Under the pieces are notes generated by a model. It saw only the letters and a list, made by a program, of their open reading frames with translations, had not been told where the DNA came from and did no database searches. Positions 11,504 through 24,289 of a stretch of DNA of 26,516 nucleotides are shown here, in pieces (the first letter of the stretch is position 1; the number at the start of each line of letters is the position of its first letter). The translations under genes and the position numbers were made by a program. Source of the DNA: Oscillospiraceae bacterium (GTDB taxonomy: Bacteria > Bacillota > Clostridia > Oscillospirales > Ruminococcaceae); NCBI GenBank assembly GCA_045611725.1, contig JAZKXQ010000208.1:1-26516 (forward strand), read 5' to 3'.

Positions 11504-13000
11504 TTATCTTCTTCTTGTTCTTGTAAGATCTATTCCAGGATCAAGTACTCTATCCAAATCATGTTCAATTTCTGTTTGGATAAGTCTTTGTTGTTCTCTA
11601 TAAATTCTCTTGTTCCGTTCTTCTTCTGTTTCAAATCTCTCAGACTCCATAGCGTTTTTCATACCAGTAATTGAATAAATAAAGGCTGATGTCATGTGAG
11701 AGAATTCATCGTGCTTCAATTTTTCACTCTTCCAAACACTATTTATTGGGTCATAGTCATAAATAGACGAGTTTAAGCACTCGATGAGTCTATGAGTAGT
11801 ATCTTTGTTGAAATAGCAATTCTTCAGTTCAGATCGTGCTATATCAATTTGTTCGTTTTGTTTCAATCTTGGGGCTATCCAGACTTGAAATCCGTCCTTT
11901 TCTGCTTGTGCTCTTCTTGTAATTCCCATAGACCATTCAGTGTTATCACCATCATGAGGAAACACCAAACGTCTGATTTGAGGGTAATTTCTTCTCAACC
12001 AATCCCTATAGAAAGGCCAGGATTCCATACTTCTTTCATAACAATCTACAAATCTCCAACGATTATTATAGTATTGATAAACAGTAATAGCAGTCGAGTC
12101 ATAGTGCCCGATGTCAAATGCAGCAAAAGTCTCAAACTGAGGTACTACTTCATATTTTCCTACATGTTCTGGGTATTTATTGAGTTCAGGACCAAAGATC
12201 GAGCCCCTTACCTCGTTGCCATATTGACCAAATAAGAAGCGTTGTTGGTCTGATTTTGGAAGCTTCATAAGGACTTTCTCTATATAATCCTCTTCAATAT
12301 TTTCTATGTTATCAATTGGATTAAGAGTAACAGCTATCATTTCTTTTGGATCAAGCTTTATTTCAGGATCGAGGGGGTTTATATGTTCATGGTATTCTTT
12401 ATAAGTCCAGTGAGATTTGGTGGTAGGATTCAGAACATCAATCTCCATCAACTTACAGAATTTATCTTCTTTATAGTGTTTTACCTTTTGAGCAAGACGT
12501 GTACGAAGCTTCTGGACTGATAAGAAGTTGATTTCACTACATTCATCAAAGAAAAGAGTAGCAAATTCAGTACCCAAAAGTCTTTCTACGTCTTTTTCAT
12601 TACCAATACCACGGAAGATTATTTGAGAACCATTGGGAAGAGTAAAGATAGATTCCCCCCAATTCATCCCATTTCCCATCCAAGCTTTATAAAGAGCAGG
12701 ATATTTGATTTGAAGGACTTTTGGGAAGGTATCACGTATAATAGCTGTTTTCAGAGAATTGAATGTTTGACGGGCTATAAGATGACGAGAACCAGGATAA
12801 AGAACAGCTCTGGACACTACCTTATCAACACTACGAAATGATTTACTGCTACGAGATCCACCCACCAATAAGACTTTCAAAATAGCAGAGTTTTGGTAAA
12901 AGGCTTCATTAAGAGCTTTTACTCGATCTTTTTTACTGTCGAGTTGCTCTTGTGTTATAACACCCTTATCCAGTAATCTACTTATAACATCTGCAATCAT
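11504..13000 (-). CDS. terL: Terminase large subunit
   Basis: Walker A-like GGSRSSKS, Walker B FFDECSE, motif LNP, nuclease motif AAFDIGHYDSTAI, and FPHDG; 498 aa. Confidence 0.92.
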   Translation of the reverse strand: MIADVISRLLDKGVITQEQLDSKKDRVKALNEAFYQNSAILKVLLVGGSRSSKSFRSVDKVVSRAVLYPGSRHLIARQTFNSLKTAIIRDTFPKVLQIKYPALYKAWMGNGMNWGESIFTLPNGSQIIFRGIGNEKDVERLLGTEFATLFFDECSEINFLSVQKLRTRLAQKVKHYKEDKFCKLMEIDVLNPTTKSHWTYKEYHEHINPLDPEIKLDPKEMIAVTLNPIDNIENIEEDYIEKVLMKLPKSDQQRFLFGQYGNEVRGSIFGPELNKYPEHVGKYEVVPQFETFAAFDIGHYDSTAITVYQYYNNRWRFVDCYERSMESWPFYRDWLRRNYPQIRRLVFPHDGDNTEWSMGITRRAQAEKDGFQVWIAPRLKQNEQIDIARSELKNCYFNKDTTHRLIECLNSSIYDYDPINSVWKSEKLKHDEFSHMTSAFIYSITGMKNAMESERFETEEERNKRIYREQQRLIQTEIEHDLDRVLDPGIDLTRTRRR

Positions 13001-13419
13001 AAATATTCAGCCCACTTCGAGGTATAGTACTCGTCTGCGGTCATAGAATAAATGTATAAATAACTTGGATCTTGACGTAAAACACCAGTAAAAAGAAAAC
13101 CAAGCCCTTCTGTAAACCTGACAGACTGAAAGTTATCTATCTCTATAAACACATTACAAATAGAAGCCTTTTGAAAAACATAATTGAGTACTTGGGAAAT
13201 AAATTCTGGATTACAACATGTACGATCTTTTACAATATGATCCATAATTGCAGTATCATCATTTATTTCAACCAAAGCCCAGTATCTTTTATGGTCTGTA
13301 AGTATTTGTTTATCCGAAGAAATAATAAGATGAGGAAGAGACTTTTTTATTACTTCAGCCTCTTCATCAAAACCTTTCATACCATAAGTCAAAACATCAA
13401 ATAAAGGCTTTCTCAACAT
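12997..13419 (-). CDS. GNAT-family acetyltransferase
   Basis: C-terminal N..S.RF.E.LGF...G.LRQ......YSM motif of RimJ/RimL-like GNATs, common in podovirus tail modules; ATGA overlap with terL. Confidence 0.7.
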   Translation of the reverse strand: MLRKPLFDVLTYGMKGFDEEAEVIKKSLPHLIISSDKQILTDHKRYWALVEINDDTAIMDHIVKDRTCCNPEFISQVLNYVFQKASICNVFIEIDNFQSVRFTEGLGFLFTGVLRQDPSYLYIYSMTADEYYTSKWAEYL

Positions 13420-13420
13420 C

Positions 13421-14710
13421 TTACTTCTCCACAGATATATAATCCTTTTGAGAGTTCAGGATCAGGGAAGCTACTTCAAATGCGTTTTTGATTTGAGACT
13501 TAATACAAGCTGCAGAATCAATAATAGTGTCATCTGGTATAATCCTTCCTACCTTTCTCCAAACTGATGAGAAGATTTTACGGTATTTCCATGGTAGTTC
13601 TTTGGATATTCTGTATAATTCATAACCTGCACCTGGAACATATCCTTCTCTGAGGGCTGATAAAGTGGAAAGAATAGTATCTTCAACATGATCTTTCTTT
13701 TCCGACAAACCAGCTACAGAATCAGAACCAACCTTTATTTTGCAGATCTTACTTTCAAACCGTGCAACTCTTTCCTTCACTTGGTTCTTTTCTTCCCCAG
13801 AGTTTTTGTCAGACTTCTTCAATCTTTGGATATAGGCTGATAATTCTTTGGTCTTTTTGAATTCAATCAATGTAGCGTGTCTTCTGATGTCAATTTTGGT
13901 TACACAAGAAGATAGAGTCTGTAGATCCAAGAACAAATCAGCTTTTTTATTTTGAGGGAAGTATGTAGTATCAATATGTACATAGGAGCCAATTCCCTTC
14001 AGTTGATTTTGTTTCATGGCATCTACACACTCTTCGGAGCAACTCCCAATCACCACCAAAGGTTTATGTTGTTGTGCTGCTTGAGAGGCTGGGATAGACA
14101 ATTCAGATAATGTAATTTGATCCTTAATAAAGAAAACTGGATCAGAAAAAACACAAGACCCAGTAGCTGTATTTGCAAAGAAAGGATCAGACATACCCAA
14201 ATTCAAATAGTAGCCTGTCAATTGTTCATATTCAATCCCTGCGTCAAACTTCTCTTCAATAATATAATGCCCATCCACACCATTATGTTTTATAGCTTCT
14301 GTAATAGGTTCAGCAATCTCTCTATCTGAATTGGCAGGAATCATAGCTACGTTAAATAAGTCTTTTTCAACATCTACAGGCATTTTTTCAGCATCAATAG
14401 TAGCAGTAATCCAACCAATAAGATCTTTCAGTTTTGGTAAATCTTTTCTATCAAGTCTTTTTACCATCTCAGAAGCCAAAAGCATAACAGATGTACTACT
14501 ATCACCTGTTTCTTCTACTTGTTTCTTACTGGCCTGACGTAAAAGTTTGAACATGTGCGTTGGGTCTTGGATTTTATAAGCAACAGAGAAACCGTCTTTT
14601 GTGCAGACAGCTTCATTGTTTTTATAGTCAATAGTTACAAGTCTTCCTTTTGGCCCAAGAGTCCCTACAACCAAATCTACCTGTTTTTGAGTTTTCTTAT
14701 CAATTTTCAT
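13421..14710 (-). CDS. groEL: Compact GroEL-like (group I) chaperonin
   Basis: TLGPKG, TKDG.SVA, GDSSTS (for GDGTTT), ANSD, KPLVVI, ERVAR, IKVG, EKKDHVEDT...EGYVPGAG, IIDS; 429 aa versus about 545 for bacterial GroEL. Confidence 0.9.
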   Translation of the reverse strand: MKIDKKTQKQVDLVVGTLGPKGRLVTIDYKNNEAVCTKDGFSVAYKIQDPTHMFKLLRQASKKQVEETGDSSTSVMLLASEMVKRLDRKDLPKLKDLIGWITATIDAEKMPVDVEKDLFNVAMIPANSDREIAEPITEAIKHNGVDGHYIIEEKFDAGIEYEQLTGYYLNLGMSDPFFANTATGSCVFSDPVFFIKDQITLSELSIPASQAAQQHKPLVVIGSCSEECVDAMKQNQLKGIGSYVHIDTTYFPQNKKADLFLDLQTLSSCVTKIDIRRHATLIEFKKTKELSAYIQRLKKSDKNSGEEKNQVKERVARFESKICKIKVGSDSVAGLSEKKDHVEDTILSTLSALREGYVPGAGYELYRISKELPWKYRKIFSSVWRKVGRIIPDDTIIDSAACIKSQIKNAFEVASLILNSQKDYISVEK

Positions 14711-14721
14711 ATCTTTCCTTC

Positions 14722-15279
14722 TTATTTGTTATCCAGTAATTGTTTCAAAAGTCCAGTCAAATCAGCCACTTGTTGTTCCAAAGTTTCAATCTTTTGTTGT
14801 TCTGGAGTCTTTTGTTTTTCTTTATCCTTCCAAACCCTTCCCAATAATTTACATGTATCATCGGGAGAAATTTCAACAGCAAAATCATAAATCAACTGTT
14901 CTTCATCAAATTGAATATCATCTGGAAAACCTGGTCGAAACATTCTGTACATTTGGTTGAATTTTTCTTTCCAGGGGTATAATTCTGATAATTCGCTTGG
15001 TTCATATTGTTTATTTTGAAAGTCTGAAAAAGTGAAGTTACGTTCAAAATCTTCATATGAGTCCTGATAGTAGATTTTATGGCCTGGTTTAAGTCTTGTA
15101 AGAGTCAGTTCACCAGTATTGATTTCCATAAAAGGTACAAGCTCATATAAGTGTTTTTTTGCCTTCAGTGATCCAGTCTTATTATAGCATAAACGAAAGA
15201 CCAATCTATGAGGCATTTGAGATCTGAACTGAGACCTTTTTTCATAATCCATATCATCTTTATAATCAAATTCTGCCAT
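14722..15279 (-). CDS. Conserved-type hypothetical phage protein with C-terminal coiled coil
   Basis: 185 aa; TAATG coupling to groES; C-terminal IETLEQQVADLTGLLKQL coil; resembles from memory proteins normally encoded just after the capsid gene. Confidence 0.65.
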   Translation of the reverse strand: MAEFDYKDDMDYEKRSQFRSQMPHRLVFRLCYNKTGSLKAKKHLYELVPFMEINTGELTLTRLKPGHKIYYQDSYEDFERNFTFSDFQNKQYEPSELSELYPWKEKFNQMYRMFRPGFPDDIQFDEEQLIYDFAVEISPDDTCKLLGRVWKDKEKQKTPEQQKIETLEQQVADLTGLLKQLLDNK

Positions 15280-15518
15280 TATTTATCATCTCCATCTTCT
15301 ACAAACAAAGCATCTTCACCAAAAATATAACTATACCGAGTGTCGATTTTGCGGTTGTTTCCTTTATAAAAATAGACAATACAACCCTCTTGAATATAAT
15401 CAGGCACTTCTACACCAGTTTTTATCACTGTACCTTTGGATAATTCAGATACAGAGAAGTTATTTTGGTCTGCATGTTCTTCAATAATAATAATATCGTG
15501 TAAAGGTATTAAATTCAT
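15279..15518 (-). CDS. groES: GroES-like co-chaperonin
   Basis: MNLIPLHDIIII matches GroES N-terminal M.I.PLHD.V.V; then KGTVIKTG and IQEG.IVYF; 79 aa; one gene upstream of groEL. Confidence 0.75.
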   Translation of the reverse strand: MNLIPLHDIIIIEEHADQNNFSVSELSKGTVIKTGVEVPDYIQEGCIVYFYKGNNRKIDTRYSYIFGEDALFVEDGDDK

Positions 15519-15533
15519 ATGTTTTCCTTCTTG

Positions 15534-15863
15534 TTAAAATGTTCTTGTTGATTCAAGTTTTGTAAGTTGCTTGATTTTCTTTTCTTTATTTCTTATACCA
15601 CGGAGATTTATATTTGATTTTACAGATCTATCTTTTTTACGTCTTGATAAATTGAGTGTTGAATTATTAAGTCTTCTTATAGTCTTTTTCGCTTCTTCAA
15701 ATTCTTCCTTCTCTTGTCTTTCTCTTGTAATCTTTTCTTTCTTTTCCAATTCTTCTACTGATTCTGTAACGTTTCTTTTATTGTTCTTTTCCATCCAGTT
15801 TTGAAGTTCTTGTTCGTTATTTATACTTGTTCCGTCATATGTTGTAAAAGGATCAAAACTCAT
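15534..15863 (-). CDS. Hypothetical protein with basic C-terminus
   Basis: Start moved to ATG at 15863 (RBS AAAGAGGAAAG). FTTYDGTSINNEQELQNWMEKNN resembles small proteins usually found near portal or scaffold genes. Confidence 0.65.
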   Translation of the reverse strand: MSFDPFTTYDGTSINNEQELQNWMEKNNKRNVTESVEELEKKEKITRERQEKEEFEEAKKTIRRLNNSTLNLSRRKKDRSVKSNINLRGIRNKEKKIKQLTKLESTRTF

Positions 15864-15880
15864 TATTCTTTCCTCTTTGT

Positions 15881-16038
15881 GTTGGGGCAGGCCGGACGAA
15901 CTTACTCGCATATCCCCGCTTTCTGTATCCAACCCAAATCAAAAAGGTTGATCCTTCCTGTTGGCGGCCTGATAAACTTTGTGAGAGCTGGAAAAGGTAT
16001 TATCAAAATGGCTTAAAAGTTCGAAAAACCAGCTCTCA
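15881..16038 (-). ncRNA. Candidate structured RNA or 5' leader (unknown class)
   Basis: GC-enriched intergenic stretch with a 10-bp stem TGAGAGCTGG/CCAGCTCTCA (16038-15982) and a 7-bp stem CAGGCCG/CGGCCTG (15971-15888) enclosing further short helices. Confidence 0.4.
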
Positions 16039-23296: not shown

Positions 23297-24289
23297 TTAT
23301 TGTACGATTTTTGCACCATATTTGTTTGCGACATCAATTGGAGCCATGTTTTGTGCAGAGTTTTCACTATATGCACTTCTCAAATCTTGTACTGGTGATT
23401 GTAACATTTTTGCTTCGAATGAGTCCAAAATATTTCTTGCTTCTGCTGGAGTTTTTGCTTCACCAATCTTTTGTTCGAAACGTGCAGCATCCATATCAGA
23501 CATTGAACCAGTACCAGCTTGTCTATTTGCATTTACCAAGACGTTTTTCATAGAGCCTTTCCAAGCTTCAAAATCATCACGAGCCTGTTTTTCTGCATCT
23601 GAAACTCCCAAACCCCACATAGCGTTGGTTCTCCATCTTCCAAAACGTGTTGAATCTTTTTGCATTTCATCAATGTTTTTGAAAGAACTATCAAATCTTG
23701 TACCAATATCTTCAAGGTCTGTACGGAAATTTGTCAAAGGAGAAGATACTACTGTTTGTCCCTTTTCGTTTTTATAAATACCATATTGGACTCCACCACT
23801 TTCAATAGGATCAGTATATTGAGTATCTTCTACAGTAATTTTATTCAATTCTGCATTTTTGGCTGCTGCGGCTTCTTCACGAGCTCTCATAGCATCTTCC
23901 ATTTCTACCTGTTTCAAGAAGTTCAGATAGTTTTCTTTTTCTTGAGCAAGTTTCATGTTGCTTACTTGATTATATGCTTGGAAGCCCTTCAATAAACCAC
24001 CTGTCAAAGCAGACTCAATTGGTAATTCAGATTCAAGACGGCCTTTGTTTTGTGGAGTTGATAACATCTTTTCGACCATTTTATCATCAACTGCACTACC
24101 AATAGCTGTACCGGCATCTCTTGTATCCAACATGGCTCTTTTATATTGATCAGTAGCACCGGCCAAGTTTTTGATCAAATCTTCACGAGTTACAACTATT
24201 GGTTGAGCAATAGTACGTGTTACTTTGTGAGTTGGATATTGACGACTTGAATTTGTTGTATAATTTATATTCATAGCATTTGGATTCAT
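23297..24289 (-). CDS. DNA ejection / internal virion protein (middle)
   Basis: 330 aa, helical with coiled coil; between the other ejection-like genes. Confidence 0.55.
   Translation of the reverse strand: MNPNAMNINYTTNSSRQYPTHKVTRTIAQPIVVTREDLIKNLAGATDQYKRAMLDTRDAGTAIGSAVDDKMVEKMLSTPQNKGRLESELPIESALTGGLLKGFQAYNQVSNMKLAQEKENYLNFLKQVEMEDAMRAREEAAAAKNAELNKITVEDTQYTDPIESGGVQYGIYKNEKGQTVVSSPLTNFRTDLEDIGTRFDSSFKNIDEMQKDSTRFGRWRTNAMWGLGVSDAEKQARDDFEAWKGSMKNVLVNANRQAGTGSMSDMDAARFEQKIGEAKTPAEARNILDSFEAKMLQSPVQDLRSAYSENSAQNMAPIDVANKYGAKIVQ

Follow-up and report, generated by a model that had tools for sequence, protein, structure and literature searches.

A minimized GroEL homolog and a small Cpn10-fold protein encoded together by gut phages

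Mini-GroEL, a minimized GroEL homolog

The DNA analyzed here (the window) is the entire 26.5-kb contig JAZKXQ010000208.1 (C208; 26,516 nt), part of a 2.2-Mb metagenome-assembled genome (MAG) filed as an Oscillospiraceae bacterium (GCA_045611725.1), a host assignment made by binning alone. Two genes on its minus strand encode chaperonin-like proteins: mini-GroEL, a Group I chaperonin homolog of 429 amino acids (aa; ~48 kDa) at 13421..14710, and mini-GroES, a 79-aa protein with a Cpn10 fold at 15279..15518. Both belong to a compact operon that continues into the terminase gene, and an identical Shine-Dalgarno sequence, AAGAAGGAAA, precedes the mini-GroEL ATG and the mini-GroES start. The start codon of mini-GroEL is firm because just 6 in-frame codons lie upstream of the ATG and AAGAAGGAAA is adjacent to it. 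A first-pass annotation, made by eye from the sequence, had described the protein as a minimal GroEL with equatorial and apical deletions, possibly forming a single ring.

Profile, sequence, and structure comparisons agree that mini-GroEL is a true GroEL homolog. The Pfam model PF00118 matched at 71.7 bits (cut-off 34.3), with only residues 12–88 aligned, and phrog_5725 ("chaperonin groEL") matched across residues 11–375 (E = 1.3e-57). BLASTP against E. coli GroEL gave 27% identity over residues 12–372 (E = 2e-30), and phmmer comparisons with solved GroEL/Hsp60 structures reached 1e-29; mitochondrial Hsp60 was the top sequence match among these structures and also a top-tier structural match. 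An AlphaFold2 (AF2) model built from a 77-sequence alignment had a predicted local distance difference test (pLDDT) score of 95.1 and contained the equatorial, intermediate, and apical domains. Foldseek matched this model to GroEL/Hsp60 with E ~1e-29, and VIA-align (Z 32) placed 423–428 of the 429 residues on GroEL/Hsp60 positions 13 to ~527–530. Because nearly all residues map in this way, mini-GroEL is a clean structural subset of GroEL with no rearrangement. We rejected the idea that the deletions described below are alignment artifacts, since the structural aligner places 428/429 residues. The E. coli GroEL/GroES complex (PDB: 1AON; Z 30.8, 426 residues aligned) shares the three-domain fold, the ATP-site residues, the stem loop, the hinge glycines G192/G410, and a separate gene for a Cpn10-fold lid, but both of its proteins are larger: GroEL has 548 aa versus 429 for mini-GroEL, and GroES has 97 versus 79 for mini-GroES.

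Residues were mapped with a MAFFT L-INS-i alignment of mini-GroEL, E. coli GroEL (K-12 record, L001:3026-4669), and the family members described below; Q denotes mini-GroEL numbering, and coordinates are on the minus strand. GroEL residues 1–13, 111–118, 299–319, 428–434, 438–447, 464–489, and 527–548 are missing. The losses read by eye in the first-pass annotation all reappear in this formal alignment. The 82-residue span G414–D495, thought to have been cut to 39 aa, corresponds exactly to Q G360–D398 (13517..13633), which lacks helix O, helix Q, and the 476–485 hairpin; the deletions of 428–434 and 438–447 (helix O) and 464–489 (helix Q and hairpin) sum to 43 aa. The apical loss placed at ~20 aa after D291 is one of 21 aa (299–319), starting 8 residues past D291 (Q D262), with its junction at Q C269|V270 (13901..13906). 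The missing N-terminal part and GGM tail are the absent residues 1–13 and 527–548; mini-GroEL ends 3 residues past the position of GroEL D523, and the tail is likewise absent family-wide. In the model, only two short helices (374–380 and 382–387) lie between helices N and R, a stretch occupied in GroEL by helices O, P, and Q plus a β-hairpin. Helix Q is GroEL 462–471 (PMC7185714). The stem loop (Q21–39) and the C-terminal strand are retained, whereas the N-terminal strand is gone.

Features beyond that first reading include an 8-aa deletion that trims the end of helix D, the other inter-ring site; the loss of N479 and A480; and a cognate mini-GroES. The helix-D junction lies at Q P92|K93 (14432..14437; GroEL 111–118 gone) in both alignment and model, and the helix has 14 residues in the model versus 21 in GroEL, two turns fewer. 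Within this contact site, K105, A108, and A109 are replaced by D, D, and L, E434 is deleted, and D435 is W. At the second site, the four residues whose removal had been noted before, R452, E461, S463, and V464, are S, I, P, and deleted, respectively. All 9 of the 9 classical inter-ring contact residues are thus deleted or changed. Neither of the two known ring-ring contact sites of GroEL survives: each is deleted or replaced, and this holds family-wide, so the structural premise is stronger than previously stated.

The nucleotide site is largely kept. T30, G32, P33, K51, D52, D87, T90, D398, G414, G416, and D495 are all conserved, including the four aspartates D52, D87, D398, and D495 that had been judged to be retained (Q D39, D70, D344, and D398), and G88S, T89S, T91S, and G415A are conservative swaps. 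The phosphate-binding loop GDGTTT (GroEL G86–T91) reads GDSSTS (G69-D70-S71-S72-T73-S74; 14489..14506), as the first-pass annotation had it. Across the family D70 and T73 are invariant, whereas positions 71, 72, and 74 vary (G/S/A/N, T/S, and S/G/A/L). The GDSSTS loop carries little weight because it is confined to one subclade, most family members having GDGTT; GDSSTS as a sign of an inactive ATPase was rejected, since it is Ser/Thr/Gly variation within a single subclade. The altered allostery predicted earlier is well founded because L and V take the place of R197 and E386, which form an allosteric salt bridge in GroEL, and K327 is opposite an alignment gap. Of the hinge residues, the glycines at GroEL G192 and G410 are kept and G375 is K. 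In the groove between helices H and I, Y199, Y203, F204, L234, L237, L259, V263, and V264 become M, F, F, S, A, V, K, and Q; the groove is largely polar in the window mini-GroEL, with more hydrophobic residues retained in other family subclades.

The mini-GroEL family and its linked Cpn10-fold gene

Approximately 38 metagenomic relatives of 420–457 aa were found, all with the same deletions. When 1.84 billion representatives were searched exhaustively with HMMER, 15 clusters of 364–457 aa and one 753-aa intein-bearing member were returned (E 1e-37 to 1e-239), and ordinary GroELs (520–550 aa) appeared only from ~1e-30. A second search gave 24 members of 423–452 aa, every one on a contig of ≤36 kb. 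The helix-D, apical, helix-O, and helix-Q deletions are present in all family members: 8 of the 16 residues of GroEL 105–120 are left in 38/38, and 6–13 of the 27 residues of GroEL 296–322 remain. The GenBank phage collection (INPHARED release) held no record with a member of the family, the best identity being 27.7%, and the genuine GroEL-bearing phage genomes listed there are all at least 60 kb.

In a 99-sequence FastTree phylogeny, the family forms one clade with Shimodaira–Hasegawa-like support of 100 and a stem length of 0.64. Because the deletions are common to all members of this single clade, they arose once; the reduction was stepwise, since basal subclades retain the hairpin. The family is under purifying selection: the ratio of nonsynonymous to synonymous substitution rates (dN/dS) was 0.05–0.16 for unsaturated pairs, and its catalytic Asp, Thr, and Gly residues do not vary. 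Variability within the family peaks in the segments that would face a second ring, at 2.3–2.5 bits compared with 1.87 on average and 1.4 for the ATP site. The lengths of these segments differ between subclades by up to ~20 residues. Together, these data show that mini-GroEL is a selected, intact, minimized GroEL with a conserved ATPase core.

Two family members stand out. The 753-aa metagenomic member, P0007, carries an intein of ~325 aa with a LAGLIDADG homing endonuclease exactly within its phosphate loop (GDG|TTS); the insert starts with C and ends with HN (VGDG|C…HN|TTS). Inteins typically occupy indispensable active sites, and this position is as expected for one; to our knowledge, no intein in a GroEL-type chaperonin has been reported. 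The 449-aa member P0002 is an NCBI hypothetical protein of a Methanobrevibacter MAG, and its contig is probably phage DNA that was wrongly binned with an archaeal genome from a gut sample. Scans of viral contigs with P0002, P0004, P0005, and P0006 as queries gave no match.

Mini-GroES begins MNLIPLHD, compared with MNIRPLHD in GroES, and BLASTP matched it to E. coli GroES with E = 8e-5. Alignment-to-alignment comparison of mini-GroES with GroES by hhalign gave 85% probability (E = 5.7e-6). The top Foldseek matches of its AF2 model (pLDDT 84) are all Cpn10 proteins. A wide VIA search with the same model ranked GroES (Z 9.5), T4 gp31 (Z 9.2), Hsp10 (Z 9.1), and a chain of 7ekq (Z 8.5), which we take to be a plastid Cpn10-type subunit, ahead of the next match at 6.6. 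The mobile loop is ~9 residues shorter than in GroES, with F21-S22-V23 aligned by hhalign to GroES I25-V26-L27, and mini-GroES homologs share the loop motif F-x-[VI]-S-[DE]-L. The roof hairpin is absent, leaving a gap of 7–8 residues at GroES 45–55.

Approximately 7 family loci could be examined with their flanks, and every one carries a gene for a Cpn10-fold protein of 74–81 residues. In four loci (L035–L038, on contigs of 5, 27, 38, and 38 kb) whose mini-GroEL is 35% identical to that of the window, a 74–81-aa homolog overlaps the mini-GroEL stop codon. In L009, where mini-GroEL is ~43–46% identical, the mini-GroES homolog lies one gene further on, and L031 has the same module. Since the linkage is retained in loci with a 35%-identical mini-GroEL, it is as old as the family.

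The operon and its phage setting

The window is phage DNA because it encodes a terminase large subunit, portal, tail, and tail-fiber proteins, and an amidase. Viral and metagenomic contigs of 35.1–35.3 kb carry sequence near-identical to it, and gut metagenomes of goats, cattle, and sheep, from numerous studies, also contain it. A candidate capsid protein is encoded at 23297–24289. Elsewhere in the assembly, contig C231 carries a canonical GroES-GroEL pair. A further contig, C320, belongs to a second phage that encodes a 428-aa mini-GroEL, 80% identical, with the same neighbors (L005:475-1761, minus strand); either two related phages were therefore co-binned or both infect one host.

All genes of the operon are on the minus strand. 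The first encodes a 132-aa charged protein (15534..15932), which has a homolog in L009 between mini-GroEL and mini-GroES. Mini-GroES follows, identified by BLASTP, AF2, Foldseek, VIA, and hhalign, then a 185-aa protein (14722..15279), and then mini-GroEL, identified by profile searches, BLASTP, AF2, Foldseek, and VIA. One nucleotide past the mini-GroEL stop begins the gene for a 140-aa acetyltransferase-like protein (12997..13419; phrog_4470, 5.6e-4), which overlaps by 4 nt the downstream gene for the terminase large subunit (11504..13000; Pfam Terminase_3 and Terminase_6N). Because the operon overlaps the terminase large subunit gene, the chaperonin genes can be placed in a packaging/morphogenesis operon. 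The acetyltransferase-like open reading frame (ORF), which here sits between mini-GroEL and terminase, is kept beside the terminase gene in related phages, sometimes downstream of it.

The 185-aa protein received no assignment in Pfam, PHROG, or ESM Atlas searches. It has a C-terminal coiled coil, and its gene lies behind that of mini-GroES in every related locus examined, with homologs in L031, L009 (L009:5208-5783), and L035–L038 (L035:4400-4951, L036:9771-10343, L037:4360-4911, and L038:5635-6201). Loci of the basal subclade have an additional conserved ORF, of 96 aa, between the mini-GroES gene and the ~185-aa gene. The 185-aa protein could be a third chaperonin component or a chaperonin substrate.

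RNA support consists of a few contigs from one sheep-gut metatranscriptome library, which cover 13871–14552 (mini-GroEL) and 15407–15730 (the mini-GroES and 132-aa genes) at ~95–98% identity. These contigs hint at transcription, DNA carry-over being the alternative source. Two raw RNA-read runs contained practically no reads on the chaperonin locus.

Oligomeric state and mode of action

On balance, we favor the view that mini-GroEL and mini-GroES constitute a naturally minimized Group I chaperonin pair of ~35–38-kb tailed phages from ruminant and other gut microbiomes, which would work as a single ring, without trans-ring signaling, and with a weakly binding mini-GroES lid. A single ring is probably the best reading of the oligomeric state, judged from the sequence. 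SR1 is the single-ring GroEL mutant R452E/E461A/S463A/V464A, and mini-GroEL has none of the four native residues at these positions. SR1, however, carries only point mutations, and its equatorial domain is complete, whereas mini-GroEL has lost the elements themselves, and naturally; its single ring is predicted. Wild-type GroES traps single-ring GroEL, which works only once lid binding is weakened (PMC5575113). Engineered SR1-type GroELs follow the same logic as that proposed here, in that single-ring cycling needs a weak lid (PMC5575113). A natural Group I precedent is mitochondrial Hsp60/Hsp10, which works as single rings with a dedicated Cpn10 and no negative inter-ring cooperativity (PMC7174398, PMC8292379). 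Mitochondrial Hsp60 is nevertheless full length (~550 aa), has none of the mini-GroEL deletions, and is still capable of forming double-ring "footballs."

Phage-encoded GroEL homologs provide a second comparison. OBP gp246 and AR9 gp228 are single-ring heptamers (PMC7185714, PMC9598537). EL gp146 has a shortened helix D, a loop in place of helix Q, and neither the R197-E386 nor the D83-K327 bridge (PMC7185714, PMC9598537). EL, OBP, and AR9 are jumbo phages with co-chaperonin-independent GroELs, whereas mini-GroEL belongs to a ~35-kb genome with an adjacent Cpn10-fold gene, and the EL and AR9 chains are full length at 558 and 562 aa versus 429 aa. AR9 GroEL falls outside the mini clade in the 99-sequence tree, and EL and OBP match mini-GroEL far more weakly than cellular GroELs do (E = 6e-16 and 1e-7). 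The crAss-like phage GroELs (cr108_1, 494 aa, L002:5959-7443; Cellulophaga phi14:2, 490 aa, L003:3976-5448) and metagenomic GroELs of 457–508 aa (P0033, P0051, P0054, P0066, P0090, P0121, P0147, and others) are partly trimmed across helix O, helix Q, and the hairpin, with 8–19 of the 31 residues of the 460–490 region left. Unlike mini-GroEL, they retain the N terminus, an untruncated helix D, and the greater part of the apical segment. GroELs of 458–511 aa, the crAss-like ones included, are scattered on the tree, which suggests independent partial reductions; phage GroELs thus appear to have had their ring-ring face trimmed repeatedly. Small ORFs next to the cr108_1 and phi14:2 GroELs gave no GroES-like match with either of two hidden Markov models.

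The lid also has counterparts. Cpn10-fold phage co-chaperonins that, like mini-GroES, have no roof hairpin include T4 gp31, RB49 CocO, and viral GroES clusters found in virioplankton, and the marine "GroEL>GroES" clade has the same gene order as the basal mini-family loci (PMC5649160). That virioplankton survey required GroEL to span residues 8–514 (PMC5649160), so it could not have reported mini-type GroELs because it selected full-length ones. Our literature searches on truncated or minimal natural phage GroELs turned up nothing beyond this survey and the papers on EL, OBP, and AR9. Among the systems we found described, the 429-aa and 79-aa proteins would be the smallest natural chaperonin pair.

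Several points weigh against this interpretation. Loss of contact residues is no proof of a single ring, because the rings of EL gp146 pair 1:1 via other residues (PMC7185714), and mitochondrial Hsp60 forms transient double rings (PMC7174398). The adenine-pocket residues N479 and A480 (also A481) were lost with the deleted hairpin, and nucleotide affinity may therefore differ. The Pfam Cpn10 model (PF00166) misses the 79-aa protein even when the whole genome is searched with a cut-off as loose as E = 10. A physical pairing of mini-GroES with mini-GroEL is suggested by predicted fold and gene linkage alone, and the evidence for transcription is weak.

Mini-GroEL could instead form a double ring through a new, smaller interface, either paired 1:1, as in EL gp146 and Group II chaperonins, or transient, as in mitochondrial Hsp60. 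Alternative interfaces are indeed known in proteins without the GroEL contacts (PMC7185714, PMC5934643), and EL gp146, with its likewise shortened helix D, is a double ring in the apo state. In mini-GroEL, however, the losses go beyond single residues to whole secondary-structure elements, and the base-facing segments that remain are the least conserved, with the length differences of up to ~20 residues described above. Segments so variable in sequence and length are therefore unlike a maintained interface, and we regard a double ring as unlikely. It is very improbable that mini-GroEL is a decaying remnant, or a derivative that is no longer a chaperonin, without rings or ATPase and kept by chance or as a structural or scaffolding protein. 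Such a view would accommodate the loss of 22% of residues, including part of the adenine pocket, as well as the GDSSTS loop and the short Pfam alignment. Against it stand the dN/dS values of 0.05–0.16, a model in which every domain is intact at pLDDT 95, the family-wide invariance of the catalytic Asp, Thr, and Gly residues, a deep, monophyletic family with a conserved partner gene in all members examined, and the targeting of the phosphate loop by an intein in one member. We rejected the pseudogene/remnant reading on the grounds of purifying selection, the intact model, and the invariant catalytic residues.

The two proteins might also act separately. T4 gp31 acts on host GroEL and has a mobile loop longer than that of GroES. 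By analogy, the 79-aa protein would retool host GroEL, and mini-GroEL would be a co-chaperonin-independent holdase or foldase. The three characterized phage GroELs all function without a co-chaperonin (PMC9598537), T4 gp31 is likewise roofless (PMC5649160) and among the top structural matches of mini-GroES (Z 9.2), the H/I groove of mini-GroEL is poorly hydrophobic, and the assembly also encodes canonical GroES and GroEL, on contig C231. The genes are nevertheless adjacent or overlapping throughout the family, down to 35% identity, and none of the ~7 loci examined has one gene alone. Moreover, the mobile loop of mini-GroES is shorter than that of GroES by ~9 residues, so a canonical GroEL apical domain would be harder for it to reach. 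We regard separate action as slightly less likely than a double ring.

In the single-ring interpretation that we prefer, mini-GroEL would assemble into one GroEL-like ring and hydrolyze ATP without negative inter-ring cooperativity, and the ring would be capped by its own short-looped, roofless mini-GroES. The short loop, where F-x-V/I replaces IVL, together with the reduced hydrophobicity of the H/I groove (L234S, L237A, V263K, and V264Q), would make for a weak, self-releasing lid; we infer weak binding because engineered single-ring GroEL needs such a lid for cycling. Expressed from a packaging/morphogenesis operon, the pair would most likely fold or assemble one or a few phage virion proteins. 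A stricter version is possible, and we offer it tentatively: the pair would be an obligate single-ring encapsulating chaperonin whose ATP cycle and lid release need no second-ring signal, lid affinity having been lowered by coevolution of the short loop and the less hydrophobic groove. It would then be the smallest complete chaperonin machine known (~48 + 9 kDa subunits), and its ring geometry or cavity may also differ from that of GroEL.

The need for two rings and the smallest structure capable of encapsulating and folding proteins have been studied for decades, chiefly through mitochondrial Hsp60 and engineered mutants such as SR1 and suppressors of SR1. The pair described here offers a compact two-gene system, with ~1.5 kb of coding sequence, for the study of single-ring cycling, the tuning of lid affinity, and cavity requirements, and it could act as a small orthogonal folding helper in protein expression. 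It also extends chaperonin carriage beyond large phages, to genomes of ~35 kb versus at least 60 kb in the GenBank phage collection searched. This phage family amounts to a natural deletion experiment, in which approximately a quarter of the equatorial domain, with both ring-ring sites, and part of the apical domain have been removed, while the ATPase core and a coevolving lid have been retained under purifying selection.

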